From IMG/VR virus record IMGVR_UViG_3300029715_000189: 64,000 nt of DNA. One strand, 5' to 3'. Under the pieces are notes generated by a model. That model had not been told where the DNA came from and made no database searches. It saw nothing but the letters and a program-made list of their open reading frames with translations. Below are positions 9,101 to 59,906 of this stretch, in pieces. Positions within the stretch are counted from its first letter, which is position 1. Every line of letters starts with the position of its first letter. This DNA comes from a virus (Duplodnaviria; Heunggongvirae; Uroviricota; Caudoviricetes). A program made the position numbers and the translations under genes.

Positions 9101-12100
9101 CTATAATTGATAAACTATATACAGGTAATGCCGATCTTCTTACTGAGAGAGAAAAAGATGTGTATGATAAATACAAACAAGATTTTGATGATTATGTATC
9201 GTCTTTGGGTGACAGTCCCGTTAATCTCATAAAATCATTATCTGAAAAGGCTGATAGGCTTACAAGTCCGAGATCTGTGTATGAGGATAATAAAGCTATT
9301 ATTGATATGGCTAAATCCAATTTGGAACCAGATCAAAGGAAGGAACTTGATGATGCTATTTCTTCGTATGTTGATATAATGAACAGACGGGACAAAGGGG
9401 AGAAAGTTGACGAAGATAAGCTTGCCGATTCGGTATTTACCATAGAAGATCTTGGCCAGGTTGGAAACATCACGGATCTCCTTCCTTATATCGAACAAAA
9501 CAGGATTATTGATAAAGGTCGTATTTCCGAATCTACGTTAAGTAATTTTGGGGAGGATGATGCTAATATAGATTCTCTTGTAAATGAATTAGACGAATCT
9601 GATAATACGCCGGGAGCCAATATAGATAGCGCCCAGAATCCAGAGACGTTGATGGTAAGAAGAATCTCCAATGACGGCAATGAAAGGTATGAAATTGCAG
9701 GTCTTAGAGCCGATAAATTTATATCTTCTATAAAATCATTGGTTCCTATTCAAATAAGCTCTGAAACGAACGCTAATGGCACTAAAAGGTATTCTCTTAA
9801 TATAGGTGGAGAAACGGCTACTATAATTGAATTGCCTTATCATGCGAGATGGTCTATAGACAAAGAATCGGCTCGTGTTCTTAACCGTTACACAGACGTG
9901 TCTATTCAGGACGTGGGTAATTCCTATTCTTTGGTTTATAAGCGTCTTGATTCAGATGAGTTGGTTCCGTACAGAACAGGTGTTGGATTCGGAGAGAATG
10001 AGGTAGATAAAATAGATCAGGAAGCATTATCTTCTTTGAAAAAAGGAGATAAGGTTAATCTCGAAATAGATGTAAATGATACCTATAATCAGTCTCTTTT
10101 TGCCGAATACAATGATGCTGTTCAGTCCGGCGATAAAAAAAGAATAGAATCTGCTGAGAATAAACTGGTGTCCAATATGGTTATCAAGGTCATGAGTGGG
10201 AACCGATTCGTTTCTGTTGTAAAAGCTGATACAGGAGGCATAGATGGTATAAGTAAAATAAGAAGAACGGCTTTCAACAAGTGGAAGAAGGATGCCGGCC
10301 GGTCGGCTACCATCGGCGTCGGCACGCATGTTGTTGCCCAGACCCTTCCCGGAAGACCGGTGTTTAACATGAAGGTGAACGGTCAAGGATATGGCCAGGT
10401 AGAAAATCTCCCCATTACCGAAAAAGGTGCTGAAAAAATATCTGATGTAGGATATGTATTAAATGGCAAAGTCGTGCTTAAGAACGGCTCTAAATACACA
10501 GGCTTCCCATTTGCTTATTCTATATTAAATGACAAGGGGAATAATTACAAAAATGTAAGAGTTCCGGTAGTCGTCATCAAAGGTAAAAACGGTCTTAATT
10601 ATCTTTTCCCAGTTAGCCTACGTTCTGTAGAATCAGAGGAAGGGCAGAAATGGATGTCTTTTATAGATATGCTGCTTGAATCTGGTGATTCTGAATTGCT
10701 ACAGATGGGTCAAGATGACATACAAGATCTTAATGCGTATCTAACCAAGTTAGGTCTTGATCCGGCTTCGTATCAAGTATCGTATTTGAATCCTATTTCA
10801 GGGCTTAGAAAAGCTCGTGAGGCTATAGAAAAATTATCTACGGTTCCTGATGTTGTTAAGTGGGTAGAAGATGAAAGCAGGAATGTGAAAGACATTGTGA
10901 CGTCTGAAGTAGAATCTGGAATAGATTTCGAAGGTGAGATGTTTGTCGCTCCTAAGATCAGGATTCAGTTTGGCAAATCATCTTCCAGACCTAAATCGCT
11001 TATAGAGGATGATCTTCCTTTCTCTGATGAGGGTAAGACCGTTACTTCTAAGGTAGAAGATGTGGAAGTTTATGAAGAGGAAATGCCAGAGGAAGGGGCT
11101 GCCCGGGAGACTCAGCCGGCGCCATTAGCTCAGCCGGCTCCTGCGGCACAAGCTACGCAGTCTTTACCTGGCAAGAAGCGTACCTCCAGGAAAAACTTCT
11201 CTCTTATGTTAAACGAAATAGAATCTCATATAGAAAAAGAAGGATTGCCGTCTTATGCTAATATTTTTGATTTTATAGCAAGGAAGATTGTAGGAGGTGA
11301 TTTGAGGTTTCTTCGTGAGAGAGGTAATCCTAAAAGCCTTAAGGAAGAAATGGGATTAGAACCTAAAGGAACAGTAGGTGATAAAATATCCACTCCTTCC
11401 AGTAAAGGTGGTAAGATCTTAGAAGAATACGTTTCTTGGCTTCGTTCTCAAACAGATCAGGTGGTGGTTGATTATGTTGGGCCAAGATCTGACGAACAAA
11501 TTATATCAGAGTTGAAAAACTTTTTGAAATATATTAATTTTGTTCCAAGCAAGGCTTTGAATTATTCTCTTAGAGTCAATGGCATGGATACCCTAAAAGA
11601 ATATGGCACAAAAGAGGAAGTAGAAAAAATGGAATCTGATATCAATAGTTTGGTTTCTAAAGTTTTGCCTACGGTGGATAATAAAACTGTAGAAGATGTT
11701 TCTACTGCAATAAAATCAAACAACTTGCCTGCCATATGGGAGCCCGTGGAAAGCCTTGATATGACAAACGAGGAAAAAATAGAGTTTTTGAATAACGTAG
11801 CAGATTTCCTTAGCGGCATACCAGAGCATGATGCTGTCGTGGAGTCTATAGAGTCAGAATCAGATAATATTTTAAATGATGGAAAAGAAGGAAGTGCAGA
11901 AGGCGGTGCAGTACGCACTGAGGAAGATGGCGATAAAAAGGGAGATGGAGAAGGCAAAGGACAATCCAGAACAAATGTCGAAGTTGAAAGAAATGTCGAA
12001 TTACCTGGATCTGAAGAAGGAAGAGTAGATAACTATAGGAAGAACGGAGATAAGTTCTCTGACATTGCTGAAGTTACTTTATGGCTACTTAGAAGGGCTG

Positions 12101-12804
12101 CCGGCATAACCTCTATCCCGGAAGGAGAAGAGGTTTATGTAGAGGGAGATGAGGTTAATAGTATTATGACCGATATGGAATCAAGGTATGGTATAGACAC
12201 CATCAATCACTCGCATACGGCTAAGGCTATAAGGGACCTTAACGGCGTATCAGGTTATAAAGTAGAATACGGCTCAACCTTTTTGACATACGATCCTTTT
12301 ATTAGAATATCCAATCTAAGGAAAGGATCTAAGGCTGCGAAAGACGAACCTCGTATATCCGAAGAGTCGCTTACTCACATATCAAGGGTGACAACCCCTT
12401 ATTTCCTGTACGGCGGCGATGAAGCATATACATCTGTTCCGGCTAAGGTAGAACCTATACCGGAGAAGATAATGGGTCGTAATGGCATTAAATTTGGTAT
12501 GAGTGTAGTCGAGTTAACCAAATTAGGGTACAAAAAAGCTGGTGGAAACTGGATATATAAATTCTATATGAACTCAGGTGTGTATGATTTGTATAATATC
12601 AGTACCGGTGAAGCGTTTAGGGCAAAACCGGATCTTGGAGTTAAGATAAGTTCCAGCGCATTCATCCGTTCTTTATCTCAATCTGGTAGGAAAATACAAA
12701 ATATGATTAGTAATATGAGCCAGGAAGAGATAGATAGGAATAAGAATCTTGTAGAAGGTTCTGATAATTCGGATTCGATAAATGAGTTAAATAAGGAGTG
12801 TTGA
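6160..12804 (+). CDS. Giant protein of 2214 aa. The N-terminal region has Gly-zipper-like hydrophobic segments (GGLGVGSLGNIGAKLGGRIGAKLAA), and there are long acidic and coiled-coil stretches. Putative ejected or internal virion protein. A crAss-like virion RNA polymerase role was not confirmed.
   Basis: A 6.6 kb ORF with no internal stops. Its size class matches the giant proteins of crAss-like podophages. No DxDGD-type RNA polymerase motif was found. Confidence 0.85.
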   Translation: MADNNIDRYNPAAKTTYEDVARQRKLAEEENYTPATLPETTTPLVPNYMPGEGVYAQPEFPDYASRIAAAEYEEPYIAKEISNSYSEALARNSYRGATPAAPPLNPYGPKVSIRESHQMGNDGVWRTKYPNYIPGINNEDYYARRQSGRSKFWNGVGKFALKSVLYGAEGVVSLPDKLINMASEGSYKAALNTDLDKFVGDLDRRIDMLLPHYYKKEVEDYNFCQKLFKDTGNFLWNDVLGNGMSFTVGAMISAYITGGLGVGSLGNIGAKLGGRIGAKLAARQAANRGIGNLKSVFNNYVRKGVATGRNVGEAAKTMTLLATSAGFESSVEANSFMKQSESDFKDYYRKIYGRDPNVEEMAVFRNSNADAGSAIFAANMGIVGLSNWLLFGKYIGLGGKAIPGLEKKLNKHLFGLGTEVAKPGEMAIKITNPNIGQEIAGNVFNIMKRPVSEGLWEEGSQGAVQNAAEEYVKSRYDNVAMNGAVDVLDAISEGFKKQYTSKEGWTEIGIGAIIGSLFGMREGFFGVKEYSNSQILLERQVNEYNKASSNLNTAALNTLKKSMSLGPQVRSDAQSMTDKELDDAMFEKMSIDNQMGTLEDSAENFRQMIDMMPISEIAEANGMSLEEAKKYKDSIIDNYNNRLSDFRSAQSFAEDLIGDDSKIEFRKYVARNVFLGLQSESRMKDIASVIETLSGQPRVADALSTFSRLSDRARERAMAIRGIRSRIEELESEIEDLATRPRNVDGKNPQAEYIQRKTKELESLRTNYNNSLSELSTLIGKEFSIEELVSKTESVLSSPLSPISSQDVIEAYDTLVAFDDYFNVKSRQEKKFTAKDKAMRSLVNEYRRSLMDYRNMNNFLSKMLDKRFLAEENRGFSKALSSLWSTPYKGDDKVPDFAESNKVGKYDTDEVVDQAVSEGKISEDEAWTIKAFMHALDKVREDRMKEAEDDIKESPLTESVSDEDYEAAMDNPIMVPAVRQSIIDKLYTGNADLLTEREKDVYDKYKQDFDDYVSSLGDSPVNLIKSLSEKADRLTSPRSVYEDNKAIIDMAKSNLEPDQRKELDDAISSYVDIMNRRDKGEKVDEDKLADSVFTIEDLGQVGNITDLLPYIEQNRIIDKGRISESTLSNFGEDDANIDSLVNELDESDNTPGANIDSAQNPETLMVRRISNDGNERYEIAGLRADKFISSIKSLVPIQISSETNANGTKRYSLNIGGETATIIELPYHARWSIDKESARVLNRYTDVSIQDVGNSYSLVYKRLDSDELVPYRTGVGFGENEVDKIDQEALSSLKKGDKVNLEIDVNDTYNQSLFAEYNDAVQSGDKKRIESAENKLVSNMVIKVMSGNRFVSVVKADTGGIDGISKIRRTAFNKWKKDAGRSATIGVGTHVVAQTLPGRPVFNMKVNGQGYGQVENLPITEKGAEKISDVGYVLNGKVVLKNGSKYTGFPFAYSILNDKGNNYKNVRVPVVVIKGKNGLNYLFPVSLRSVESEEGQKWMSFIDMLLESGDSELLQMGQDDIQDLNAYLTKLGLDPASYQVSYLNPISGLRKAREAIEKLSTVPDVVKWVEDESRNVKDIVTSEVESGIDFEGEMFVAPKIRIQFGKSSSRPKSLIEDDLPFSDEGKTVTSKVEDVEVYEEEMPEEGAARETQPAPLAQPAPAAQATQSLPGKKRTSRKNFSLMLNEIESHIEKEGLPSYANIFDFIARKIVGGDLRFLRERGNPKSLKEEMGLEPKGTVGDKISTPSSKGGKILEEYVSWLRSQTDQVVVDYVGPRSDEQIISELKNFLKYINFVPSKALNYSLRVNGMDTLKEYGTKEEVEKMESDINSLVSKVLPTVDNKTVEDVSTAIKSNNLPAIWEPVESLDMTNEEKIEFLNNVADFLSGIPEHDAVVESIESESDNILNDGKEGSAEGGAVRTEEDGDKKGDGEGKGQSRTNVEVERNVELPGSEEGRVDNYRKNGDKFSDIAEVTLWLLRRAAGITSIPEGEEVYVEGDEVNSIMTDMESRYGIDTINHSHTAKAIRDLNGVSGYKVEYGSTFLTYDPFIRISNLRKGSKAAKDEPRISEESLTHISRVTTPYFLYGGDEAYTSVPAKVEPIPEKIMGRNGIKFGMSVVELTKLGYKKAGGNWIYKFYMNSGVYDLYNISTGEAFRAKPDLGVKISSSAFIRSLSQSGRKIQNMISNMSQEEIDRNKNLVEGSDNSDSINELNKEC

Positions 12805-12806
12805 GT

Positions 12807-13337
12807 ATGAGAAGGAGATTTTTTAATGCTGCGGATAATTTTATGGGAGGATGTTATAATAAGTTATCTAATGAAGATATAAAAAGGCTTGGAGGAAAAA
12901 GACCTTATGTATGTCAGTTTAATAAAATTCATATACATATAGGGCCTGTATTAAAAGATCATGATTCCGATGTTAGTTACATAATGTTTGATAGTGATTG
13001 GAATTATGGTGGTTATGAATCTATGGTTTATCATCATAGCAATAATGGTATTTTTATATTAGGTGAAAACAAAATTGGTAACATAGAAGATCATATGCAA
13101 GATCTAACATATTGGTACGAATATGATCCAAGCATTAATGAAAATTATTGTTATTTTTATTATGAGGCTAATAACAGCGGAAATGCTATCAAGTTGAATG
13201 GTGAGTTTAGTAGTACCAGTACTGTTTTCAACATTCCCAGCTTGGAAGTCACCACTCTTCGTGATGGCAGTTTGAGTTTTCCGGAGATTTATATAGAAGG
13301 AGTTTGGGATCCGTCATTGTATAAGTCGGTTTTATAA
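12807..13337 (+). CDS. Small protein (about 176 aa) with an N-terminal MRRRFF motif, one of three MRRRF-family paralogs. Function unknown.
   Basis: AAGGAG lies 8 nt upstream of ATG 12807 (the track ORF 12798 starts at GTG). Genes A and B at 29.2-30.6 kb share the MRRRF N-terminus. Confidence 0.7.
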   Translation: MRRRFFNAADNFMGGCYNKLSNEDIKRLGGKRPYVCQFNKIHIHIGPVLKDHDSDVSYIMFDSDWNYGGYESMVYHHSNNGIFILGENKIGNIEDHMQDLTYWYEYDPSINENYCYFYYEANNSGNAIKLNGEFSSTSTVFNIPSLEVTTLRDGSLSFPEIYIEGVWDPSLYKSVL

Positions 13338-13362
13338 TTAACTTTGCAAAAAAGTTAATTAT
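13334..13362. repeat. Perfect inverted repeat with 12 bp arms (ATAATTAACTTT gcaaa AAAGTTAATTAT) that overlaps the stop of the preceding gene, 107 bp upstream of TnpB#1.
   Basis: Read directly from the sequence. It could be a terminator-like hairpin or a subterminal IS-end hairpin. There is no U-tract. Confidence 0.5.
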
Positions 13363-13468
13363 TATGATGCAAAATAATATCAAAAATAATTAATTCTATT
13401 TCATAATCCAAATGAAATATGTGTCTTAGATACATGGTTTGTAAATAGCATTTAATGTATTAAAAATA

Positions 13469-14701
13469 ATGAGATTAGTATATAAGTTCAACATAGGGCA
13501 AAATGAAAATATATCATCTTTGTGCAAGATTAGCAACAACTTGTACAACCAAGCATTGTATATTTTCAGAGAAACACTTTCTAAAGAAGATAAGTGGTTA
13601 TCCTATTTTGAACTTGATGATATCATGAAGAATACCAAGAACTTAGATGGAGACATTAATTACAGATTACTAAAGGCGCAATGTTCTCAACAAGTTCTTC
13701 GTATTCTTGATAAAAATATTAAAAGTTATTACAAATCGGTCCAAGATTACAAAAAACATCCAACTAAGTATAAAGAAAAACCTGGTCTTCCAAATTACAA
13801 AAAGAGAGGTTATGAGTTCAATTTGTATTACACGAGTCAGAGTTGCAAAATAAAAGATGGGAAAATAATCCTATCAAAAGATATTTCAATACCCATTCCT
13901 CAATATGAGAAGTATTCTGATTTGATAAAAGATTTCAAACAGATTAGAATAAAACCATTAGCATGTGGATATAAAATAGAAATCATTTATGAGGTAAAAG
14001 ATGCTGAAGTATCTAAAGGTAGAGAAGAGAAGATTGCTTCAATCGATTTAGGGATTGATAATCTTGCAACTCTTATCAGTGAAGATTTTACTGTTCTATT
14101 TAGTGGTAAATTTGTTAAATCATACAATAAGCTATTCAATAAGACATTAGCCAAATTAAATAGTATCAAAGATTTACAAAAGATAAAAGGAACAACAAGA
14201 CGAATAAAGAAATTATATTATGATAGAGAACAGTACATAGAAGATGTCTTTCATAAAATCAGTGGAAAGATAGTTAATTTACTTATCGATTCCAAGATAA
14301 CAAAATTAATTGTAGGCTACAACAAGGGATGGAAACAAAATGTAAATATAGGTAAAAAGAATAATCGAAAGTTTACCCAAATCCCTTTTGCGAGATTGGT
14401 GAGTTACTTAGAATATAAATGTGAATTATCTGGTATTGAAATAGTTATTCATGAAGAGTCATATACTTCAAAATGTGATTCATTAGCATTTGAGAAGATA
14501 GGAAAACATGAAAACTATTTAGGAAAGAGGAAGAACCGAGGATTGTTTCAATCCTCGGTAGGAAAACTCATAAATGCAGACGTAAATGGAGCATTAAACA
14601 TTATGAGAAAAGTAGTCGGTGATTCCTGTGAATCAATTCGTAGGATAATCGATAGAGGGTTATTGTTTAACCCGGTGAGGATTACGAATGTATTTTGTTA
14701 A
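13469..14701 (+). CDS. tnpB: TnpB-like RuvC nuclease (IS200/IS605 OrfB / IS1341 type) of 410 aa. The RuvC triad is intact but the canonical CxxC...CxxC zinc finger is missing. No tnpA lies adjacent.
   Basis: The N-terminus YKFNIGQNE...LYNQAL matches the TnpB N-terminal pattern. RuvC-I is SIDLGIDN, RuvC-II is IVIHEESYTSKC, RuvC-III is INADVNGALNI. The ZF segment is replaced by a Cys-free stretch (DSLAFEKIGKHENYLGKRKNRGLFQSSVGK). Confidence 0.85.
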   Translation: MRLVYKFNIGQNENISSLCKISNNLYNQALYIFRETLSKEDKWLSYFELDDIMKNTKNLDGDINYRLLKAQCSQQVLRILDKNIKSYYKSVQDYKKHPTKYKEKPGLPNYKKRGYEFNLYYTSQSCKIKDGKIILSKDISIPIPQYEKYSDLIKDFKQIRIKPLACGYKIEIIYEVKDAEVSKGREEKIASIDLGIDNLATLISEDFTVLFSGKFVKSYNKLFNKTLAKLNSIKDLQKIKGTTRRIKKLYYDREQYIEDVFHKISGKIVNLLIDSKITKLIVGYNKGWKQNVNIGKKNNRKFTQIPFARLVSYLEYKCELSGIEIVIHEESYTSKCDSLAFEKIGKHENYLGKRKNRGLFQSSVGKLINADVNGALNIMRKVVGDSCESIRRIIDRGLLFNPVRITNVFC

Positions 14702-14767
14702 GAAGGTGCATTCTGAAACTTATAAAGAAATGTAATAAGTTTTATTGAATTTAATATTTTTCATAAC

Positions 14768-17026
14768 ATGGGTGTCAAATGTCAGATAGAAAAAAAGGAA
14801 AATGAAATAAAACGGGTTAAGGCTCCTAACGGGGAGCCTTCCGTTCTTTACGAAAGTGCTTTAAAAGTATTAGGAAACAGCGAGCGGGCTCTTCAGGTAT
14901 GGGCTAAGGCTTACACTCCTGGTTTTTTGTCGTATTACGGTCATTGGAATAACCCGGCTCCAGGGGAGATGTTTAACACCGATCCCAATGGCGAACCTCT
15001 TTTAGAAGATGTGCTGTCGTATATGAAGCGTCAGACTTATTTTGCTGATCCTTTAACGGCTCAGGATGTTAAGGATGTAAGGGATTTCCTTTTGTCTACT
15101 CATTATTTTTTCAATGCGTCTTCATTGTCTAATGCTATTCTCTTCGATTTTTATGTAGATGGCAGTTTGATACTGAATGAGCAGAAATTAAGGAGATCCG
15201 GTTTGTATGATGAAACAGAAATAAGTCGTATTTTATCCGATCCTTCTGTTTTAAACGAGGTTTCGACTTCCATGAGAAAGTTAATAGATTCTTCTATTAA
15301 CGAACATGATAGGGAAAAAGATAATTATTTTATGTCTATTGACTATCAGTATGGTCCTATTGTTTACAAGGAGGGAGTGTTTAACCAATTTGGTAAAAAA
15401 GTACCATATAATCCTTCTGAGCTTTATTATGCTATGCGTAAAACAGTAGCCGGCATAAAGAACTTTTCTGAATTTTCATCTGCTTTTGAATCGTTGAGAA
15501 ATTCATATCCTGAACTGGTTGAGAAATTCGTTTCTGATAAAGAATTTGCCGAATCTATGTTTGATGAGTTCTCATCTACGAATAAGATTCCGGTAATAAA
15601 CATAGAAGGGGATGATGTGGTGGAAGGCAAGAGAAGATCTTTGTCTAAGCTACAAGATCTTTCTTATTACAATCCTGGCAAAATAGAGTTCCTAAGAGCT
15701 CGTATATCAGCTTATTTACATAGGGTTAATGCCGACACCGAATCCGATTTAAGAAGCATGATATGGGATATAGAAGAGGCTTGTACGTGGTTTGGCATAG
15801 ATATAATAGGGACATCGGAAACTTATGATGGCACAGAAGAATCTTTGAATAAGATAGATAATTTGATGCTGGATCTTGATATTTATGTGGCCAGGCATAA
15901 TGATGTAAATTATGCTCCAACGCTGGCATCTTCTATAGATGATGTTCTTGGTGATAGTACAGACTATTATTTTGGATTATTGCCGGAGTATATGGATAAT
16001 TTGAATATCGTTTATTCTGAATCCGATATAGACCCAGTAGAAGCATTTGAGAAACATTCATTGCTTAAGGTAGGAGATAATCTATATCAAAGGATCAGCA
16101 AAGATGATCTTAACGAGATGTATCAAATATCAACAGTATTAGCCAAGCACAACCTAACTCATTTTTCTACTAAAATATATCCTGAATCTTGTTTTAAGAA
16201 CGGCGTTTTGGATAAAGAGAAAGTACGGAATGTAGATAACAATACGCTCATGGATTCCATTAAAAAATACGTCAGATCGTTCATGGATTCTCAGAACACG
16301 GAGGACATGATAATGACCAGGATGGCGTTTGGTCACCCGGCGGTACTTGACGTTCCTTACGTGGATGTGGATCGGGAGTATAGTCGATACATGAACAAAA
16401 AACAAGATAGCGAAAACCCATTATCCTTATTCGATTTATACCAATCTTACCTTGACAACAAACTCCATAAAACAAAATTATATGATAATGCCTATAAGTA
16501 TCTTGACTTTAAACCTGGTCCATCTTTGGGCCTTATTTCTGATGATCCTGATATTTTGAAATCAATAGAATTATCTTTATCTGGAAAAGACAGGTTGATG
16601 TTGTTTGATTATAGCATGACCAGTACCGACCCTTCTTTATCAGAATTGTTTTATTTGGAGAAGTATGACCCTTCGTATGCCGGGAATGATTTTGAACACT
16701 ATTTTTACACCAGGCACCCGTATTTGTTAAAAGAAAAATCGGGCCCTAATATCGTAGAGCAAGATGGTGTTATAACAGCCGAAGGTATTTATGATAATTT
16801 TATAAGAGTAGGTAATAAGATATGGTCTAAAGTAAGCGAGAGTAGTTCTGGCTCTATCTACCAAAATCTGACAGGAACCGAATCAGAGGTGAAATACGAT
16901 TCTACTCAGAAGGCTAAGACGGTAGAAACCGATTACGCTCCATACCAAAACAGATCTGGCTTGACGCAAGACATGACCGTAAGCAAGCCTGAATTGGATG
17001 ATCTTAATAAATTGGAATGCAGGTAA
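14768..17026 (+). CDS. Hypothetical protein of 752 aa with acidic, Asp/Tyr-rich composition. No recognisable domain.
   Basis: A long ORF immediately downstream of TnpB#1. A terminator hairpin follows at 17073-17101. Confidence 0.8.
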   Translation: MGVKCQIEKKENEIKRVKAPNGEPSVLYESALKVLGNSERALQVWAKAYTPGFLSYYGHWNNPAPGEMFNTDPNGEPLLEDVLSYMKRQTYFADPLTAQDVKDVRDFLLSTHYFFNASSLSNAILFDFYVDGSLILNEQKLRRSGLYDETEISRILSDPSVLNEVSTSMRKLIDSSINEHDREKDNYFMSIDYQYGPIVYKEGVFNQFGKKVPYNPSELYYAMRKTVAGIKNFSEFSSAFESLRNSYPELVEKFVSDKEFAESMFDEFSSTNKIPVINIEGDDVVEGKRRSLSKLQDLSYYNPGKIEFLRARISAYLHRVNADTESDLRSMIWDIEEACTWFGIDIIGTSETYDGTEESLNKIDNLMLDLDIYVARHNDVNYAPTLASSIDDVLGDSTDYYFGLLPEYMDNLNIVYSESDIDPVEAFEKHSLLKVGDNLYQRISKDDLNEMYQISTVLAKHNLTHFSTKIYPESCFKNGVLDKEKVRNVDNNTLMDSIKKYVRSFMDSQNTEDMIMTRMAFGHPAVLDVPYVDVDREYSRYMNKKQDSENPLSLFDLYQSYLDNKLHKTKLYDNAYKYLDFKPGPSLGLISDDPDILKSIELSLSGKDRLMLFDYSMTSTDPSLSELFYLEKYDPSYAGNDFEHYFYTRHPYLLKEKSGPNIVEQDGVITAEGIYDNFIRVGNKIWSKVSESSSGSIYQNLTGTESEVKYDSTQKAKTVETDYAPYQNRSGLTQDMTVSKPELDDLNKLECR

Positions 17027-17072
17027 TTTTTGTGTACATATATATAGTTTTTTCATAGTTATAATCTGGGAA

Positions 17073-17101
17073 GTGAGGCTTGTGAAAGTCTCACTTTTCT
17101 T
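17073..17101 (+). terminator. Putative rho-independent terminator (aGTGAGgcttgtgaaagtCTCACt followed by TTTTCT).
   Basis: A stem-loop plus T-run lies 47 nt after the stop of the 752-aa gene. Confidence 0.45.
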
Positions 17102-17522
17102 ATATATGTACGTATATCAATAACATACAAGAAAAGTTAGATTTTCATTGTTTATGAATTATTTTTGTTAAATTTGCGATATTAGTTTCAGGAAGGGATT
17201 ATAGAAATAGGAAAAAGTAAGAACCGGACGTAACTAATAACAGTAGGAAATGAGAATCAGTACCATCAAACGTAACAACAGCATTCATATTATGTATAAA
17301 AACATTATGAATGATTTAGGTCAATTAAGAACTGTAGTTTCAAAATCCTATATTTATAATCTGATACGAAATCAAACCGGATTAAGTATTAGAACTATAT
17401 CCCATGTACTTAACCATACCAAAGAATAGGATACAGATTCTTTGTGAAAAGCATACATTTTCATACATTTGTGTGTTCTTTAGTTTTTAGATTTAAGTTT
17501 TTCATGGTATTAGTTTAGAGAT

Positions 17523-17548
17523 CAGGGCTCGCAGTGATGCGGGCCCTG
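17523..17548 (+). other. Strong hairpin (CAGGGCtCGCAgtgaTGCGgGCCCTG) inside a 740 bp non-coding region. It may be regulatory or terminator-like.
   Basis: About 10 paired bases and GC-rich in an AT-rich context. Followed by GTTTGATTT. Confidence 0.4.
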
Positions 17549-17725
17549 GTTTGATTTACAGCGCTTTACCCAAAATAGGAAAAGCGAAAGTTGCTGATTA
17601 TCAAGTTTTCCCCTTAAATGGGAAAAATTACTCATTGTGTATTATTTTTCTATCTTTTCTGAAAATACTTCTCTTCTATAGGAAATAAACACACCCATAT
17701 TCCACCCTGCAATCATGATCTTTGT

Positions 17726-17744
17726 TACGTGCTTCATGCACGTA
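17726..17744. promoter_or_regulatory. Perfect palindrome TACGTGC-ttcat-GCACGTA, an operator-like site about 27 nt upstream of the ATG at 17771.
   Basis: 7 bp arms with a 5 bp spacer, read directly. Its position fits a repressor or activator site for the GC-rich islet. Confidence 0.35.
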
Positions 17745-17763
17745 TGTTTAACAATTAAATACT
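17744..17763 (+). repeat. 20-mer ATGTTTAACAATTAAATACT, repeated exactly at 57425-57444.
   Basis: An exact 20 bp match in two places. A chance match is unlikely. Both copies are in the same orientation although the local genes are on opposite strands. Confidence 0.6.
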
Positions 17764-17770
17764 ATAAATT

Positions 17771-17992
17771 ATGGGTGGTGATAAAATCGTCCTTTTAGAT
17801 GGAGCCGGGGCTAACGGCGGTGGTGCAGCAGCTACCAACGGTCTTCTTTCAATGATTCCCGGCATGTTTGCTAATTTGATAGGTGGTAATAAAATGGATC
17901 CGAATCTGGTGGCGGCTTTGATGAACGGTCGTAACAACCAGGACGGTTTCGGTGGGGCTAACGGATGTTGCAATAACAACGCTGCTGTCTGA
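17771..17992 (+). CDS. Small Gly/Asn-rich protein of 73 aa (MGGDKIVLLDGAGANGGGAAATNG...GCCNNNAAV). Function unknown.
   Basis: The ORF has markedly higher GC than its surroundings. It is the first gene of a compositionally distinct islet. Confidence 0.55.
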   Translation: MGGDKIVLLDGAGANGGGAAATNGLLSMIPGMFANLIGGNKMDPNLVAALMNGRNNQDGFGGANGCCNNNAAV

Positions 17993-18015
17993 TTTTATTA
18001 AGAAAGGAGGCTAAT

Positions 18016-18429
18016 ATGGCTTGTGTTTCTAAAATAGGATCGTTGTATGAGATGGTTACGAAGAATGTTATTGTCAGTACGACAAATACAGTCTTCGGTA
18101 TTAACCCACGGGCTTGGATCGCCCTTCCGTGTGAGGGTCTTATCCTTCTTAAGATAAGGCAAGTAGCCCCTACAGCCGGAAGTGCTCTACCGGTACAGAT
18201 TGCGGTCCCGGCAAACAGCACAGTTTCAACAGTAGGAGCCGACACCTGTTGCCCGGTTACGGGAGTGAATGTCGTGAACCCTGTTAACGTAGCTGTCACG
18301 GGTGCTGCTATGGTAAATGGCACAGAACGCCTTCTGTACTTCAATAAAGTTCGTGGCGTGTTAAGATTAATGGATTGCTGTGTTCCAGTAGCGGCAGCCC
18401 AGGCGTCTGAAGTTGAAGCAGGTAAATGA
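18016..18429 (+). CDS. Hypothetical protein of 137 aa, Val/Ala/Thr-rich with CC pairs. AGGAGG lies upstream.
   Basis: ORF with an AGGAGG Shine-Dalgarno (aagaaAGGAGGctaatATG). GC-rich islet. Confidence 0.6.
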   Translation: MACVSKIGSLYEMVTKNVIVSTTNTVFGINPRAWIALPCEGLILLKIRQVAPTAGSALPVQIAVPANSTVSTVGADTCCPVTGVNVVNPVNVAVTGAAMVNGTERLLYFNKVRGVLRLMDCCVPVAAAQASEVEAGK

Positions 18430-18479
18430 TTTCAGTAGGGTGATGAAGATCATCACCCTATTTTCACCTAACTAATATT

Positions 18480-18974
18480 TTGATCATGTTTTCAGATTTG
18501 AAGAAAGGGTTTCAGGTACATACCCTTGATACTAATACAGTACCTAAATACGAATTGGGAAAGGTAGTAGCCGTATCCGAACCCAGGTATCTTCCTCCTC
18601 AGCCAGGTCAGTATCAGGCGATGCAGACCCGCGTGGTGGATCTGACGGTAGAGCTCACTGGCGAAACCAAGACCTATACGGTCCCGGAATCCCAGAATGT
18701 GGCTAAGGCTATGGGCATAACATTATCTACCAGCATAGATCCGATTATGAACGAACTGAATGCCATAAAAAACACCAGTCAAGACATAATAGACAGCGTA
18801 GATGCCCATCGTGCCAAGATAGAGGCTTGTGAATCTATATTAGAAGATATCAATCCGGCATTCAAGCAAACGAGAGAGCAGGATCGTAAAATAGCTGGTA
18901 TAGAAAATAAGGTGAATGACCTTACTGATTCATTCGAAGATTTAAAGAAGTTAATTGTAGAACGTTTGAAATAA
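18480..18974 (+). CDS. Hypothetical protein of 164 aa with a coiled-coil C-terminus.
   Basis: ORF in the GC-rich islet. No domain recognised. Confidence 0.6.
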   Translation: MIMFSDLKKGFQVHTLDTNTVPKYELGKVVAVSEPRYLPPQPGQYQAMQTRVVDLTVELTGETKTYTVPESQNVAKAMGITLSTSIDPIMNELNAIKNTSQDIIDSVDAHRAKIEACESILEDINPAFKQTREQDRKIAGIENKVNDLTDSFEDLKKLIVERLK

Positions 18975-18981
18975 GTATAAT

Positions 18982-19359
18982 ATGATAGTATATGATTTAA
19001 ATTCAGGACACAGAGAATATCCTGGATATGACGAGATAGAAGACAGACGAGGTGGAGGCAGAGGCAGAAGCCGGCGTTCTGATGGGACGTACATGGAGTA
19101 CGGACATGGGTTCCTTCCTCCTTACGATCATTATGGTATGCATGAGAAGATGAAGGAAATGGAAGAACGCGAAAACGAGCTGGAAGAAAGGGAAAGAAGG
19201 CTCGAAGAGCGCGAACGTCGTCATGAAATGGAGGACCGGGAATACCGGAGGATGGGTTACGAATCCTACCCGACCGATTACTATGGAGACGACAGATACT
19301 ACGGTGACGGGCCTCAGATGCGCAGAGGTCGCGGACGTGGCAGAGGTCGTTCTTATTGA
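18982..19359 (+). CDS. RG/RGG-rich, Glu/Arg-repeat protein of 125 aa. It ends at a TGA that is in frame with the next ORF (19453-19746), so readthrough or a fusion is possible.
   Basis: RGRGRGRGRS and EERERRLEERERR low-complexity repeats are present. The frame stays open for 31 codons after the TGA up to ATG 19453. Confidence 0.6.
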   Translation: MIVYDLNSGHREYPGYDEIEDRRGGGRGRSRRSDGTYMEYGHGFLPPYDHYGMHEKMKEMEERENELEERERRLEERERRHEMEDREYRRMGYESYPTDYYGDDRYYGDGPQMRRGRGRGRGRSY

Positions 19360-19452
19360 GGAGCAGACGCAGAGGATCCAGCTTATCAGAAATATGTAGA
19401 TACTTACGGCTACCATTTTTCTAATGCTCTCGCTGATGAGGCGGTAAAGAAG

Positions 19453-19746
19453 ATGGTCAACGTCGATGGATCCAAGAGGATCTGGAAGCAGCCGGAAATA
19501 AAAGATATTTTTGAAAAGTGCGGAGCGAAGAAGCCGGATAAAGCGACATGGGGCGATGTCCAATATGTCTTTGCAATGTACTATTCGGATGGCTTTCCGA
19601 AGGTCTTCAAATGTGAGAACGAGTTGGTGAAAGCTACGTTAATGTATTTGGATGATCCGGATGCTCCCGAAGGAGTAGCCTTTATAAGATGGCTTGCCGT
19701 GCAAGATTACCTCGGCGAAAAAATAAACTGGAAGGATCTGACCTGA
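19453..19746 (+). CDS. Hypothetical protein of 97 aa. It may be the C-terminal part of the preceding RG-rich protein if TGA 19357-19359 is read through.
   Basis: Same frame as 18982..19359. GAGG lies 12 nt upstream of the ATG, so it could also be an independent gene. Confidence 0.5.
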   Translation: MVNVDGSKRIWKQPEIKDIFEKCGAKKPDKATWGDVQYVFAMYYSDGFPKVFKCENELVKATLMYLDDPDAPEGVAFIRWLAVQDYLGEKINWKDLT

Positions 19747-19851
19747 GATCCAGACCCAGGTCCTTCCGGTGGTGCGGGAGCCATAGTAAAAAATATGATT
19801 CCCGCATTCCCGTTTTTCCCGTTTGGAAAAAAAAGAATAAAAATGTTATAC

Positions 19852-19888
19852 CGGTCGGCGGGCAATAGAATACCCGTGGCCGGTTTGT
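19852..19888 (+). terminator. Imperfect GC-rich hairpin (CCGGTCGGCGGG...CCCGTGGCCGG) followed by TTTGTTT. Putative terminator after the GC-rich islet.
   Basis: Read directly. The stem has wobbles and one bulge. Confidence 0.3.
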
Positions 19889-19911
19889 TTCACATAACTT
19901 TTTTTTTGGAC

Positions 19912-20079
19912 ATGAATATAGCACACGAATCTAAATCGAATAAAACCCCCTTGTATTTAATAGGAGAGTTGATTGGCGTACCGAATACGGTTATGGACTC
20001 AGCATTGCATGAACTGAAAGATAGAATAGACAAAGACCCTGAATGGGTGATTATATACCACTTTACACCAAAAGCGTAA
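19912..20079 (+). CDS. Small protein of about 55 aa (MNIAHESKS...IIYHFTPKA). Its C-terminus is encoded by the conserved dispersed repeat.
   Basis: First ATG in the track ORF 19795..20079. It ends in ...YHFTPKA* inside repeat copy R1. Confidence 0.45.
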   Translation: MNIAHESKSNKTPLYLIGELIGVPNTVMDSALHELKDRIDKDPEWVIIYHFTPKA

Positions 20080-20098
20080 AGTAATACACATTTATACG
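20047..20098 (+). repeat. Dispersed repeat copy R1 (GTGATTATATACCACTTTACACCAAAAGCGTAAAGTAATACACATTTATACG).
   Basis: Near-identical copies lie at 22011-22057 (same orientation) and 59699-59749 (inverted). Confidence 0.7.
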
Positions 20099-20152
20099 GA
20101 AATTCGTACCGGGTTACATCAAAACCCTCTACCTTCTGGTAACATCGTTACA

Positions 20153-21357
20153 TCAAAGGATTCTTTTTTCCGATTTACGGATGATGTTAAAAGCACCATT
20201 GATATCAGCATTAATTGTCTTACCAGAAGAGGTTTTAAACAATCCTCGTTTAATCCTTCTTCCTTTGTAAGATTCATGTTTGCAAATCCGTTCATTATCT
20301 AAAAAGCTACATTTTGAAGTATAAGATTCTTCAACGATCTTAACATTAATACCTTCTAATGTAGCTTTATACGATATCATACTGATAAACGAATTAAAAG
20401 GAATAGATACAAAGTTCTGATTATTACGCTTTCCAATATTGATCTCTTGTTTCCGGCATTTGTTATGACCGATTATGATCGTATTAATACCATTGGAAAC
20501 TACGTGATTAACCAATATCCTACTTGCCTTATGCAGATAATCTTTGATCTTGTTATTCCTTTTGTTGGTTAATGACCTGATTTGTTTTGAAATTTGTTTG
20601 TTATCTTTTAATTTAGATTTTAAGAATGCTAACCTTTTGTTATAATATTGGTTAATAGACTTTAGTGGCCTACCATTGATGATAAAACAAGAACCGGTGT
20701 TTGAAACACAAGATGCTAAATTATCCAATCCTATGTCGATGCCAAGATAGTTCCCATTATCGGACATAAGATTCTTTTCCTTCTTATTGTAAACTATTTC
20801 AAGAACAATATACCCATTCTTAGGAATGAATCTAAGTTGTTGAATATTTTGCTTGTTAGTTCTTGTTGTAAAGGAAAACTGTTTTGGTAACTTAACAATG
20901 CCTTGTTTTATCCATTTTTGAGAAAAAGCATTTGTTGCAAAAAAACAGCAGGAAACAAACCACCCTTGTTGAGATACCTTGGCATTCTTACTTCCTCAGA
21001 ATACTCACCTCTATTCTTTTTATTAAAGAGATTGAAGAAAGATTTAAAGTTTCTATCAACCATCATCAACACTTGTTGAGCAACCGGTGCTGGTAAAGCA
21101 CGATAGTCAACATCATTTTCTGTTCTTAACTTCTTTTCGAGAGAATAGTAGTTTAGGTACTTATACTTTACAGTATTATCATCCTTGTATTGAAAATAAT
21201 ACTGTCTAACAACATATAACCCTTTATTGTATAAGTTTTTACACTTATGCAATAGATCATAAGGTTCATTGTAATAAACAGAACTTGGTTTGATCGTATG
21301 TTGTTCGACTAATCTCATGACATAAATATAGAAATTATTATTTATATATGAAAACAA
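20153..21357 (-). pseudogene. tnpB: Second TnpB-like gene (TnpB#2), split into an N-terminal ORF (20908-21357) and a C-terminal ORF (20153-20767 plus an upstream extension). The break is a -1 frame change at a T7 run. It may be a programmed frameshift, a pseudogene, or a homopolymer sequencing error.
   Basis: The C-terminal ORF carries GIDIGLDN, VEESYTSKC and NADINGAFNI. About 55% of residues match TnpB#1 over the RuvC region by eye, and the zinc finger is absent here too. The frames switch within minus-strand U UUU UUG (plus-strand A-run 20939-20945). A -1 slip gives ...PAVFFATNAFSQKWIKQG..., which is colinear with TnpB#1 ...NLYYTSQSCKIKDG... Confidence 0.8.
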
Positions 21358-21564
21358 ATTGGCGTATTTGTGGTGTAAAGTTGTATATAATTACCTAAAG
21401 ATGTTAAAAATTGGCTCGAATCTTTACCCAAGATCTGAACCTATTTTTTCAATACCAGGCCCGATGCGATTTTAACGTATCGGGTTTTTATTTTAATTCA
21501 TATTGTTTTATTTTAAATCTAATTAATTCATGAATGTCGTACATTTGTTGAAAAAGTATTCTAT

Positions 21565-21792
21565 ATGGAAAATAAGGAAGATTACGTTGGTTACGAAGAT
21601 CAAGAACTGTGTAACCGGTATTACAAAGAGGCTGAAGCCATGAGGCAAAAGCAGGACTGGCCTCGGCTTAGGGCTGTCTCTGCTCCGGCTAAGGGAACCC
21701 CATCGCCCGGCTGGGGTCAGCTTGGACGTGGAAATGATGTCCGTGTTAAGTATGTTAGTATCAACTCAGGATTGGGAGGAGATAGGTTATGA
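21565..21792 (+). CDS. Hypothetical protein of 75 aa.
   Basis: ORF with moderate GC. Its stop overlaps the next start (ATGA). Confidence 0.45.
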   Translation: MENKEDYVGYEDQELCNRYYKEAEAMRQKQDWPRLRAVSAPAKGTPSPGWGQLGRGNDVRVKYVSINSGLGGDRL

Positions 21793-22007
21793 CCGTAGAA
21801 GAGTTAGCCAGTAAAAGATACGGTGGCGAATTTGTTTTTATGTTTGGCCATCTTGAAGGTAGAACAAGATTCGTTTTTGAATGCTTTGATCCCAGACCTG
21901 ATCACGAAGGTAAAAACACTTATATGGTTTCCTATTTTGAAAAGGGACTTCATAGAAGAGATGTGGTAGATGTACCGTGTTATATGAATGTTTTGCAAAA
22001 ATCGTAG
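21789..22007 (+). CDS. Hypothetical protein of 72 aa. Repeat copy R2 follows its stop immediately.
   Basis: Translationally coupled to the previous ORF. Confidence 0.45.
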   Translation: MTVEELASKRYGGEFVFMFGHLEGRTRFVFECFDPRPDHEGKNTYMVSYFEKGLHRRDVVDVPCYMNVLQKS

Positions 22008-22010
22008 GTA

Positions 22011-22057
22011 GTTATATACAACTTTACACCAAAAGCGTAAAACAATATACATTTTTA
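22011..22057 (+). repeat. Dispersed repeat copy R2 (AGTTATATACAACTTTACACCAAAAGCGTAAAACAATATACATTTTTAT).
   Basis: It aligns with R1 and R3. Here the ...IYNFTPKA* reading frame sits just after a TAG stop. Confidence 0.7.
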
Positions 22058-22077
22058 TCACCTGAACAAATAATAAA

Positions 22078-22106
22078 GTCGGGCATGTAACTTGTCCGAC
22101 TTTTTT
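22078..22106 (+). terminator. Rho-independent terminator (GTCGGGCAtgtaacttGTCCGAC followed by TTTTTT).
   Basis: A stem-loop with a T6 run. Confidence 0.6.
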
Positions 22107-22120
22107 CGTATATTTGCGTT

Positions 22121-22441
22121 ATGGCAAGAGGTTATTATTGGATACCGCAGACAGATGAAACGTTAAATGGCATAAGCTATTACGTTACTAAGGTAGTAGG
22201 GGATATCACGTTTGATACTAAACGAAAAAGAATAGTGTTTCAAACTACCAGGTATTTCCCAGTAGACTCCGTATTTCATTTTACTCACAACTGCTTTAAA
22301 TACGTCATAACCTGCCGGCTCCGTAAGCCTGGGCTGTGGTATGAGGCAAGGAGGGAAGACTGCGGGCCAATTGGACCGGATGATGTGGAAAGGTTCGAAT
22401 CAGGAAGGTTTATTCACCGGGATGGGTACATACATACATAA
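22121..22441 (+). CDS. Hypothetical protein of 106 aa.
   Basis: ORF between the terminator and the giant gene. Confidence 0.5.
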   Translation: MARGYYWIPQTDETLNGISYYVTKVVGDITFDTKRKRIVFQTTRYFPVDSVFHFTHNCFKYVITCRLRKPGLWYEARREDCGPIGPDDVERFESGRFIHRDGYIHT

Positions 22442-22549
22442 GTTGAACTTGATGATTTTCGTCAGATTATAATTTTTTTTTCATATTATTTTTAAGCCAT
22501 CAGACTGAGAAGTTAGATGGCTTTATTTTCTATGATATGCTTGATTTTT

Positions 22550-22557
22550 AACTACCT
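22550..22557 (+). promoter_or_regulatory. TACCTTTG, an exact match to the Bacteroidota -7 motif TAnnTTTG, 27 nt upstream of the ATG at 22584.
   Basis: Read directly from the sequence. Suggestive only. Confidence 0.3.
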
Positions 22558-22583
22558 TTGTCTCATAACAAAAATGTTTTACT

Positions 22584-50185: not shown

Positions 50186-50367
50186 ATTTTATTAAAGTTT
50201 ATCTATTATTTTGTCACCCATTTCCTGCCATTCATCACTCACGCTTATAACCAATCCTATGACAGTTGATGATAATAACAATGTAAAAATAAGCCATAAC
50301 AGAAATAAGACACATCTCACCCAGTCTCCATGCTGCACCCCTTCGTATGTTATTGTTTTCATATTTG

Positions 50368-51111: not shown

Positions 51112-51278
51112 ATCTTTTTATTTTTAATTATGTAATCAATAAAACAAGATGGGTTACTTAAACCCATCCCAGTTGTTTTGCTATTCTCTCCATTTCGTTA
51201 TATGCTATCCTATGACATCCAGCGGTTAGCAAATCGTTTTCGTACCGATTTAGACTCCCTCGTGATCTCCCCATCTCC

Positions 51279-52079: not shown

Positions 52080-52091
52080 GTTTTTTATATT

Positions 52092-52583: not shown

Positions 52584-52609
52584 TCACCTTACTCTCATGA
52601 TAATTTAAA

Positions 52610-52885: not shown

Positions 52886-52889
52886 AATA

Positions 52890-53204: not shown

Positions 53205-53238
53205 AAGCTATTATTTTAATCTTCTTTTTGCATTATGC

Positions 53239-53994: not shown

Positions 53995-54005
53995 GATTTA
54001 TCTCT

Positions 54006-54560: not shown

Positions 54561-54587
54561 GGCAGGGCAGGCGCCGCCTTACCCTGG

Positions 54588-59357: not shown

Positions 59358-59698
59358 GAACCGACATGCCAAAACCCAAAACTTAACTTGATGAATAAAA
59401 TAGATTGACAAAAATACTATTCTAATTGGCGATTATATACTATTTTACACCATACATGTTGTAAAACATACATATGTTATTTAATTTCATATTCTTCTTT
59501 TCTAACTTTGTTTTACTCAATCGAATCAATAAGTCCCTTGTTTCGGACAAAACGGTTGAGTAAAAGAGGTCTTTGATATAAGGTTCCATCTTGAAAACGT
59601 AAGATGGGTAAAATCAAAAACGTTTTTGGTAAAAGAATCCGGCGATCTCACTTTTGAGCAACCGGTAGAGGGTATTGGTGATACCCAGTATGATACTT

Positions 59699-59749
59699 CG
59701 TACAAATGTATATTGTTTTACGCTTTTGTGTAAAGTGGTATATAATCAC
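59699..59749 (-). repeat. Dispersed repeat copy R3, inverted relative to R1 and R2. It overlaps the C-terminus (...YIPLYTKA*) of the 59718-59906 gene.
   Basis: Its reverse complement is GTGATTATATACCACTTTACACAAAAGCGTAAAACAATATACATTTGTACG. Confidence 0.7.
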
Positions 59750-59906
59750 CTTCTAATTCTTTTATAATATCTTTCACGATATTTAGCCTCACCTCCTTCG
59801 TTTCTGGACCAATACAGCCAAACCATCCATATATACTCCATTTTCCTTCTGGTTCTGTAGCCATACTTTTCTTTTCCTCCAATTCCGGGAAATATGTCTT
59901 CACCAT
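59718..59906 (-). CDS. Small protein of 62 aa whose C-terminus is encoded by repeat R3.
   Basis: ORF. Confidence 0.45.
   Translation of the reverse strand: MVKTYFPELEEKKSMATEPEGKWSIYGWFGCIGPETKEVRLNIVKDIIKELEGDYIPLYTKA

Follow-up and report, generated by a model that had tools for sequence, protein, structure and literature searches.

The window analysed here is a stretch of 64,000 nucleotides from a virus of the Caudoviricetes (IMG/VR record IMGVR_UViG_3300029715_000189). Two giant open reading frames (ORFs) of its plus strand, giant ORF 3 (6160-12804) and giant ORF 4 (22584-29006), are separated by 9,779 bp that contain two tnpB genes, whose products are called TnpB#1 and TnpB#2. Comparison with relatives indicates that this region (12798-22583) is the phage's own, population-variable inter-gene region and not an island carried by TnpB. 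The reading that we favour, and hold to be very probably right, is that of a native variable region into which two unrelated, non-autonomous TnpB elements were inserted independently: E1, of IS607 type, and E2, which has the terminal inverted repeats (TIRs) of IS1595 elements. The original prediction, made from the sequence alone, had correctly placed the stop of giant ORF 3 at 12804 and the start of giant ORF 4 at 22584, and had taken the DNA between them for an accessory island. Our main result is a correction: the supposed island is the phage's variable region.

The region between the giant genes in related phages

A megablast search with positions 10000-25000 matched one close relative, the 151-kb human-gut phage crAssE-Sib (OR575929.1; L002 in our numbering of loci). 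About 75% of this interval could be aligned with crAssE-Sib, at 92-98% identity and with the same gene order, and blastn with the whole window gave an identity of 92-98% across most of its length, again without a change in gene order. crAssE-Sib has been placed among the epsilon crAss-like phages, and its two TnpB genes were found to be only sporadic in the genus (PMC11054128). Judging from these alignments, the window is an epsilon crAss-like phage. The PHROGs matched by its four large plus-strand ORFs are either virion structural proteins or have no annotated function, and a PDB sequence search with both giant proteins returned nothing informative.

To survey the region, we used the 752-amino-acid protein encoded at 14768..17026 as a query; this identified 263 relatives in IMG/VR, of which 80 loci at 94-100% identity were fetched. 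Every segment of the region was mapped onto these 80 loci, and the 69 that reach both giant genes form the survey sample. Giant ORFs 3 and 4 were adjacent in none of the 69, the distance between them ranging from 4,303 to 13,366 bp with a median of 10,232 bp (9,779 bp in the window). The break in what had been predicted to be a contiguous block is thus present in every relative examined. The 752-amino-acid gene was found in all 69 relatives (in 68 at a coverage of at least 90%), as was the segment 22073-22583, always at a coverage of at least 90%. The other modules were optional and occurred in many combinations: a 179-amino-acid ORF, a 192-amino-acid ORF, an antirepressor gene, a full-length Gly-rich gene, a GC-rich islet and a 2.2-kb block with DUF2829. 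Because the giant genes are never adjacent, the constant members are found in 69 of 69 relatives and the other pieces are optional, we consider the region to be native and hypervariable. A comparison of giant-gene adjacency in relatives had been proposed from the outset, on the understanding that the same region with conserved content would mean a core region; what we found is that the genes are never adjacent and that the content is conserved in part.

E1 was present at the locus in 6 of the 69 relatives and E2 in 10, and no relative contained both, which excludes a composite or paired unit. The islet was complete in 45 relatives, partial in 14 and absent from 10, and almost all of the complete islets had no adjoining TnpB. 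The sporadic occurrence of the two TnpB genes, which are never found together, and the mostly TnpB-free state of the islet indicate that these are independent, non-autonomous insertions. That two TnpB genes now bracket the islet is coincidental, the outcome of two events that took place separately in this lineage.

E1 is a derivative of the IS607 lineage

The boundaries of E1 (13364..14769, plus strand) were derived from its insertion contexts in IMG/VR. A query with TnpB#1 retrieved 76 IMG/VR loci (78-100% amino acid identity), and, in dozens of unrelated contexts, the alignment with E1 broke off at the same two positions. E1 proper comprises 1,404 bp with a GC content of 0.286, which makes it AT-richer than the phage, and an AT dinucleotide is found at both junctions (13364-13365 and 14768-14769). 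The junctions read flank-AT-GRTGCAAAATAA ... TTTTTCATAAC-AT-flank, with AT at both in all independent insertions examined. In crAssE-Sib, the empty site is ATCACT-AT-GGGTGTC, and L013 holds E1 in that exact context; the unoccupied target can be written as ATCACTAT|GGGTGTCAAATGTCAG. In the window, E1 is inserted exactly at the ATG of the 752-amino-acid gene, the duplicated AT being the first two bases of this ATG.

The gene tnpB#1 (13469..14701, plus strand) is intact, as had been predicted; it encodes 410 amino acids with the Pfam domains OrfB_IS605 (1e-19) and Cas12f1-like_TNB (2e-12), and its product is 100% identical to that of the copy in L003. In more distant relatives (L034, L046, L049, L056, L057 and L067; TnpB 77-85% identical by tblastn, 78-86% in our table of loci), a TnpA of 201-206 amino acids with a Resolvase domain (2e-23) is encoded directly upstream of tnpB, and the left ends also start with AT. 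No serine-recombinase TnpA precedes tnpB in E1, and none is present in the whole window. Transposition by a serine recombinase of the IS607 type yields a core dinucleotide shared by both ends, and neither TIRs nor a longer duplication. E1 has neither long TIRs nor a target-site duplication (TSD) of several base pairs, and its core dinucleotide is identical at both ends, AT where the published norm is GG. Because of the AT at both junctions, the absence of TIRs and the Resolvase-type TnpA of its relatives, E1 is classified, on its ends and its gene, as a non-autonomous derivative of the IS607 lineage, which has lost tnpA and has a left end different from that of the tnpA-bearing relatives.

E1 resembles the IS607 family (for example ISFba1 and ISXfa1, with serine-recombinase TnpA, TnpB and right-end RNA, reRNA) in that close relatives of its TnpB, which have the same right end, lie directly downstream of a Resolvase-type TnpA. 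Like members of this family, it has no long TIRs or multi-bp TSD, shares a core dinucleotide between its ends and contains a putative structured 3' RNA region. It differs from them by the absence of tnpA, the AT core in place of GG, the apparent loss of the zinc-finger cysteines and the lack of a match to any Rfam model, those of RAGATH type included. In the well-characterised IS607 systems, ISFba1-type TnpBs recognise the G-rich target-adjacent motifs (TAMs) AGGAG or GAGGG (PMC11061315), whereas the flanks of E1 are AT-rich.

A putative omegaRNA (reRNA) scaffold of E1 occupies 14607..14769 (plus strand), overlapping the 3' end of tnpB and reaching the right end of the element. For this 3' region of about 160 nt, RNAalifold gave a consensus of 47 pairs from 12 diverse copies, 6 of them with compensatory changes. 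The structure fits an omegaRNA that would take the flank GGGTGTCAAATGTCAG, where the 752-amino-acid ORF begins, as its guide.

E1-type copies are very often found directly before a start codon (...CATAAC-AT|G... or T|ATG), where the AT rebuilds the downstream ATG (positions 14762-14770 of the window and the right ends in L005-L067). Of 24 distinct right flanks, 13 begin with G. At about 4290-4310 of L003, the last 12 nt of the E1 copy (TTTTTCATAACATTTTTCATAACAT) are tandemly duplicated at the right junction.

E2 carries tnpB between IS1595-type ends

E2 (20046..21395, minus strand) is a TIR-bounded element of 1,350 bp, with tnpB#2 and a putative omegaRNA as its cargo. It is a clean insertion when compared with crAssE-Sib and with 58 other relatives that have the empty site, which as a candidate TnpB target is written TTATAA|TAAGTTATCTAATG. 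Its TIRs are 28 bp long (20046-20073 and 21368-21395), and its GC content, 0.311, is again lower than that of the phage. In crAssE-Sib itself, an intact copy of the E2 type is located upstream of the "muzzle" gene.

A 21-nt pattern from the TIRs was found in more than 118 IMG/VR loci. Among the 118 retrieved, 70 contained a TnpB#2-type gene and 5 a transposase of 307 amino acids with the DDE_Tnp_IS1595 domain. In the latter (L079, L095, L106, L137 and L191), a protein with DDE_Tnp_IS1595 (4e-42) and the IS1595 zinc ribbon is enclosed by these TIRs, as are various passenger genes; E2 thus has its TIRs in common with autonomous copies. A TSD of 8 bp is the norm of the IS1595 family (ISfinder). 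Perfect 8-bp TSDs were observed at 6 of 31 unique TIR-bounded sites, and a duplication matching at 7 of 8 positions at one more. Copies that carry TnpB account for four of the perfect TSDs, and the TSD-flanked sites also include one autonomous element and a 323-bp miniature inverted-repeat transposable element (MITE). The family therefore makes 8-bp TSDs, although the E2 copy at 20046-21395 has none.

E2 contains no DDE_Tnp_IS1595 domain, and since the transposase is encoded neither elsewhere in the window nor in the complete genome of crAssE-Sib, the mobilisation of E2 must occur in trans. We classify E2, from its ends and its cargo, as a non-autonomous derivative of the IS1595 family that carries tnpB and a putative structured 3' RNA region. 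With IS1595 insertion sequences and the "transporter IS", it shares the TIRs of elements that encode DDE_Tnp_IS1595 and a zinc ribbon, the 8-bp TSDs seen in its family and the existence of MITE derivatives; it differs by having no transposase and by its passenger, a TnpB with a putative guide-RNA module. "Transporter IS" derivatives of IS1595 with passenger genes are known (Siguier et al. 2009, as cited in PMC8496243).

The gene tnpB#2 (20095..21318, minus strand) is split, as had been predicted. A tblastn search with the intact 407-amino-acid homologue from L080 showed it to be a pseudogene with two frameshifts, both at homopolymer runs, and three frame pieces at 21318-20941, 20941-20165 and 20169-20095, which are 97%, 97% and 88% identical to this homologue. 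The Pfam domains are on the C-terminal piece. Many of the TnpB#2-type copies elsewhere have a length of 1,347 bp and an intact ORF of 407 amino acids. The putative omegaRNA scaffold of E2 lies at 20052..20159 (minus strand), and its last long hairpin enters the inner TIR. RNAalifold gave a consensus of 39 pairs for this 3' region, 7 of them compensatory, from 9 copies that included MITEs, in which the region is kept.

The 21-nt TIR motif was also found in 27 loci of bacterial genome contigs, mostly from Bacteroidales, with the addition of two metagenome-assembled genomes (MAGs) that contain several copies. The exact 21-nt TIR is multi-copy in RUG10609 and in a MAG labelled Defluviitaleaceae (Co191P1bin84), and single-copy in several Bacteroidales (L277-L303). 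E2-type copies have also entered other positions of the variable region, one being located inside the 179-amino-acid ORF (L102 11749-13095; its TSD TAAGTTAT corresponds to 12862-12869 of the window) and another just upstream of the ATG of the 752-amino-acid gene (L159 512-1858). These two positions indicate that the same few kilobases have been struck repeatedly by both types of element.

The TnpB proteins and searches for transposases

Overall, the identity between the two TnpBs is 37%; it rises to 47% in the RuvC half, less than the value of about 55% that had been estimated for the RuvC region. The OrfB_IS605 (RuvC) and TNB domains that define a TnpB were found in TnpB#1, in the C-terminal piece of TnpB#2 and in the intact 407-amino-acid protein of the TnpB#2 type. 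By inspection, TnpB#1 contains the motifs SIDLGID (D193), HEESYTSKC (E329/E330) and NADVNGA (D371). The canonical RuvC-II glutamate is absent from both proteins, which read LIVGYNKGWKQ and IIIGHNKCWKQ at this position, and both have a pair of glutamates six residues before the only remaining cysteine of a degenerate zinc finger (HEESYTSKC). Such an alternative placement, designated "Ealt", has been described for pro-Fanzors and Fanzors (PMC10711439). By inspection, the glutamates of the two TnpBs appear to have a Fanzor- or pro-Fanzor-like arrangement of this kind; the two are putative nucleases. A PDB sequence search with TnpB#1 gave one weak match only and nothing informative.

A Pfam scan of the 116 stop-to-stop ORFs of 90-800 amino acids of the window detected neither a Y1 transposase nor a resolvase or DDE domain, and tblastn with an IS607 TnpA and an IS1595 transposase found nothing in it either; the predicted absence of a Y1-type tnpA is therefore borne out. 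Rfam searches, carried out on the whole window at gathering thresholds and on 12700-22700 at E<=1, revealed no omegaRNA, RAGATH or other family, and we attribute four sub-threshold matches to chance.

Neither E1 nor E2 can be assigned to the IS200/IS605 family, which is defined by a Y1 HUH TnpA, the absence of TIRs and TSDs and insertion 3' of a fixed motif of 4-5 nt. Both do resemble the TnpB-only elements of this family (IS1341 group) in consisting of a lone tnpB (OrfB_IS605 and TNB), with a putative structured RNA at the 3' side, in about 1.35-1.4 kb. They differ in that no Y1 TnpA is found here, that the relatives of E1 use a serine recombinase and that E2 has TIRs and belongs to a family with 8-bp TSDs. 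IS200/IS605 elements never make long TIRs or 8-bp TSDs (PMC13565253).

Deletions at E2 ends and E2-derived remnants

The prediction of two copies of a conserved repeat was confirmed: 51 nt at 20046-20096 and 22007-22057 agree at 86% of positions, where chance would give 0 such matches. The repeat is the end of E2 together with a fused-TIR remnant, a mini-MITE (22007..22062, plus strand) in which two TIRs are fused in a degenerate form over 56 bp. It resembles a 51-bp fused-TIR element in L130. At exactly the position of the remnant, relatives, including crAssE-Sib, have some 2.2 kb of additional DNA with DUF2829 and small ORFs, and only one of the 69 relatives (L239) shares this state. The 2.2 kb beside the remnant were probably lost in the window at a TIR breakpoint.

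A MITE of the E2 family, 323 bp in length, is present at 59428..59750 (plus strand). It has both TIRs and an omegaRNA-like 3' region, lacks tnpB and lies between the two copies of a perfect 8-bp TSD, TTCTAATT (59420-59427 and 59751-59758). In crAssE-Sib this site is empty (ACTATCCTAATTCTTTTAT), and its own copy of the MITE is located at a different site (L002 18405-18736).

In three relatives (L197, L222 and L253), deletion junctions lie exactly at the left terminus of E2, and the islet is lost in each. The right flank of E2 is unchanged across the three, save for one base in L222. The sequence joined to E2 is window position 17364 in L197, an antirepressor-like gene in L222 and the antirepressor of crAssE-Sib in L253. 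Deletions anchored at a terminus are the classical signature of adjacent deletion mediated by an insertion sequence (IS), or of recombination between IS copies. Since the deletions that remove the islet start at the terminus of E2, the E2 family helps to generate the variability of the locus, mainly by removing DNA. The locus is thus remodelled by E2 but was not built by it. The original view of a hypervariable cargo locus built by TnpB elements thus holds for the hypervariability, to which deletions at E2 ends contribute, and fails in that the TnpBs neither bound the region nor built it.

Resident genes, cassettes and the GC-rich islet

Giant ORF 3 is directly followed by the 179-amino-acid ORF (12798..13337, plus strand), an optional cassette without alignment to crAssE-Sib and present at a coverage of at least 90% in 50 of the 69 relatives. 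At its position, crAssE-Sib has the 192-amino-acid gene, which is a separate gene found in 26 of the 69; some genomes hold both. The 752-amino-acid gene (plus strand) is a constant member of the region, and neither its product nor the 179-amino-acid protein matched Pfam or PHROGs. Between 17027 and 17770, a stretch of 740 bp had been described as non-coding and as containing hairpins. A terminator-like hairpin is indeed found at 17068-17099, but downstream of it lies an ORF of 59 amino acids (17250..17429, plus strand), and the equivalent position of crAssE-Sib is annotated as a coding sequence of 74 amino acids.

The islet (17771..19746, plus strand) contains five small ORFs. Its GC-richness stood up to measurement: segments of equal size have a mean GC content of 0.381 (SD 0.027), and the islet, at 0.460, is the most GC-rich part of the whole stretch, a value that only 0.2% of such segments reach. 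The islet is 98.4% identical to that of crAssE-Sib. Its ORFs, all on the plus strand, are a truncated Gly-rich gene of 73 amino acids (17771-17992), ORFs of 137 (18016-18429) and 164 amino acids (18480-18974; a match to phrog_28898), an RG-rich ORF of 125 amino acids (18982-19359) and a DUF7841 ORF (19453-19746; DUF7841 at 3.6e-17 on the extended ORF). Searches of Pfam and PHROGs with the islet proteins and the 179- and 752-amino-acid proteins gave only DUF7841 and two PHROGs of unassigned function.

The 73-amino-acid Gly-rich ORF is what remains of a gene for 354 amino acids (L001 19370-20434) after the in-frame loss of about 778 bp from its interior. Trp residues are abundant in a hydrophobic segment of the full-length protein, which also contains Cys clusters and a coiled coil and is annotated "spike protein/glycoprotein" in crAssE-Sib. 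We had considered a collagen-like reading of the Gly-rich gene and abandoned it on reading the full-length crAssE-Sib protein. A homologue search in a large protein database showed that homologues of the 137-amino-acid protein are confined to this phage group. Many of them are chimeras in which the fusion partner is DUF7841, an AntA/AntB antirepressor domain or the TNB domain of TnpB, which suggests that rearrangement breakpoints are frequent inside this gene across the phage population. An AlphaFold2 model of the 137-amino-acid protein (predicted local distance difference test, pLDDT, 75.5) had a crAss-like DUF7841 protein as its nearest fold and, more weakly, the C-terminal domains of phage fibres; in this model, the resemblance to a fibre tip is a hint and not an assignment.

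The constant segment upstream of giant ORF 4 (22073..22583, plus strand) contains a terminator-like hairpin (22075-22103) and an ORF of 106 amino acids (22121-22441, plus strand). A scan for sigma-70 promoters gave 39 sites for 40.9 expected, which is not an enrichment. Outside the region between the giant genes, about 5 kb of the minus-strand early/replication region (50305-55121) has no alignment to crAssE-Sib, or one of only 76% identity, and is another replaced segment.

Discussion

In the scheme that we propose, the 752-amino-acid gene and the segment 22073-22583 are the constant members of a native variable region, with the 179-amino-acid ORF, the islet and, in relatives, the antirepressor gene and the DUF2829 block as its optional cassettes. 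E1 would descend from an IS607-type element with a serine-recombinase TnpA, and would have lost tnpA and integrated at an AT whose duplication restores the ATG of the 752-amino-acid gene. E2 would be moved in trans by the IS1595 transposase of sister elements in other phage genomes, with the formation of 8-bp target duplications, and the TIR ends of its family act as a fixed breakpoint for deletions of neighbouring DNA. Both could spread by homing, in which TnpB with its 3' guide RNA would cut the unoccupied allele of a co-infecting relative and recombinational repair would copy the element in. Since tnpB#2 is frameshifted, only E1 could still home in the window.

The reading of the 10 kb as an accessory island or cargo locus, brought in or put together by the TnpB pair that bounds it in the manner of a composite transposon and inserted in a contiguous block of giant genes, draws on the physical flanking of the islet by two TnpB genes, on the foreign-looking composition of E1 and E2 and the GC-richness of the islet, and on the variability of the region across relatives. 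A composite transposon or TnpB-bounded island would have the same element on both sides of a cargo, all moving together. E1 and E2 belong to different families, have different ends and encode TnpBs that are only 37% identical; they occur together in none of the 69 relatives, the 45 complete islets are mostly free of TnpB, and the giant genes are never adjacent. In addition, a gene present in all 69 relatives, that of 752 amino acids, lies between the two elements, and each of them has its own precisely defined empty site. We regard such an island as very improbable. An ordinary conserved core, in which the differences from crAssE-Sib are strain divergence and the mobile elements have no role, could appeal to the alignment of about 75% of 10000-25000 at 92-98% identity and in the same order. 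It is hardly credible in view of the widely varying presence of the modules, the clean IS insertions with defined empty sites, the deletions anchored on the E2 terminus and the many chimeric fusions among the 137-amino-acid homologues.

It could also be that the TnpB elements serve the phage, either in marker exclusion, by RNA-guided attack on co-infecting relatives, or in regulation, and are kept for this reason, which would explain their abundance in epsilon crAss-like genomes. E1 is intact and occurs in at least 76 viral loci at 78-100% identity, and its presumed guide would correspond to the start of a gene found in all competitors, so that unoccupied relatives would be cut. TnpB-carrying copies of E2 outnumber autonomous IS1595 copies by 70 to 5, and the MITEs keep the RNA region. 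The elements are nevertheless sporadic (E1 in 6 and E2 in 10 of the 69 relatives), tnpB#2 is decaying in the window, and the insertion sites are many and scattered, as selfish spread predicts. We think this explanation unlikely.

Several observations do not sit well with our preferred reading, that of a native region with two independently inserted TnpB elements that may home by means of guide RNAs. By inspection, both TnpBs have lost the CxxC cysteines of the zinc finger and have their catalytic glutamate at a non-canonical position. IS607 elements usually end in GG (review PMC13565253), whereas E1 and its tnpA-bearing relatives have AT ends. No clear TAM could be read from the flanks of E1, which have only a loose ..A-T-AT upstream, confounded with the core of the recombinase, and the oriented E2 sites with TSDs were too few to derive one. 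The E2 copy of the window lacks the 8-bp duplication, the filled site being CCCT(A/G)AATG|E2|TAAAGATG, whereas CCCTAAATATAAAGATG is the sequence without the element; G and the element stand in place of a single base of the latter, and no TSD was found under several choices of boundary. The 27 bacterial loci with the TIR motif contained no TnpB#2 and one distant IS1595 transposase nearby, and neither a source of transposase nor a host could be derived from them. Lastly, we infer both the guide RNAs and the homing step from sequence features.

For E2, the closest analogy is with the IS607-derived Fanzor2 captured by eukaryotic cut-and-paste transposons. Fanzor and Fanzor2 likewise place a nuclease of the IS607 lineage inside a DDE-type element with TIRs, and in eukaryotic transposons with TIRs and TSDs the 3' end of the Fanzor guide RNA overlaps the TIR (PMC10711439). 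The putative guide-RNA region of E2 also reaches the TIR, and both TnpBs look Ealt-like by inspection. The differences are that the elements described here are those of a prokaryotic virus, that their RuvC-I motif is D-L-G and not DPG and that they have no nuclear features; the partners reported for Fanzors are eukaryotic superfamilies, and that of E2 is IS1595. Prokaryotic TnpBs associated with DDE transposases are rare, and the only partners listed for them are ISL2, IS630 and IS1031 (2026 review, PMC13565253), IS1595 not being among them. A full-text literature search for TnpB together with IS1595 gave nothing relevant. We give even odds to a broader proposal, namely that a Fanzor-like TnpB of the IS607 lineage (Ealt, without zinc finger) was captured with its guide RNA by an IS1595 (Merlin-related) cut-and-paste transposon, a partnership previously undescribed in prokaryotic viruses. 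The combined element would spread in crAss-like phages mainly as non-autonomous copies and RNA-only MITEs, with the 3' end of the guide RNA built into the TIR, and would actively drive the loss of DNA from the variable regions of these phages.

The presence of TnpB genes in epsilon crAss-like phages was already known (PMC11054128). What is new is the exact boundaries, the families and the empty sites of both elements and, for the family of E2, the placement of a TnpB with its putative guide RNA between the TIRs of IS1595, with TSDs of 8 bp. If the capture proposed above is true, it would be the bacterial-virus counterpart of the capture of Fanzor by eukaryotic DNA transposons. E2 offers a compact natural system in which to ask how an RNA-guided nuclease functions together with a cut-and-paste transposase. 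The deletions anchored at the E2 terminus show that such elements shape the gene content of very abundant human-gut phages.

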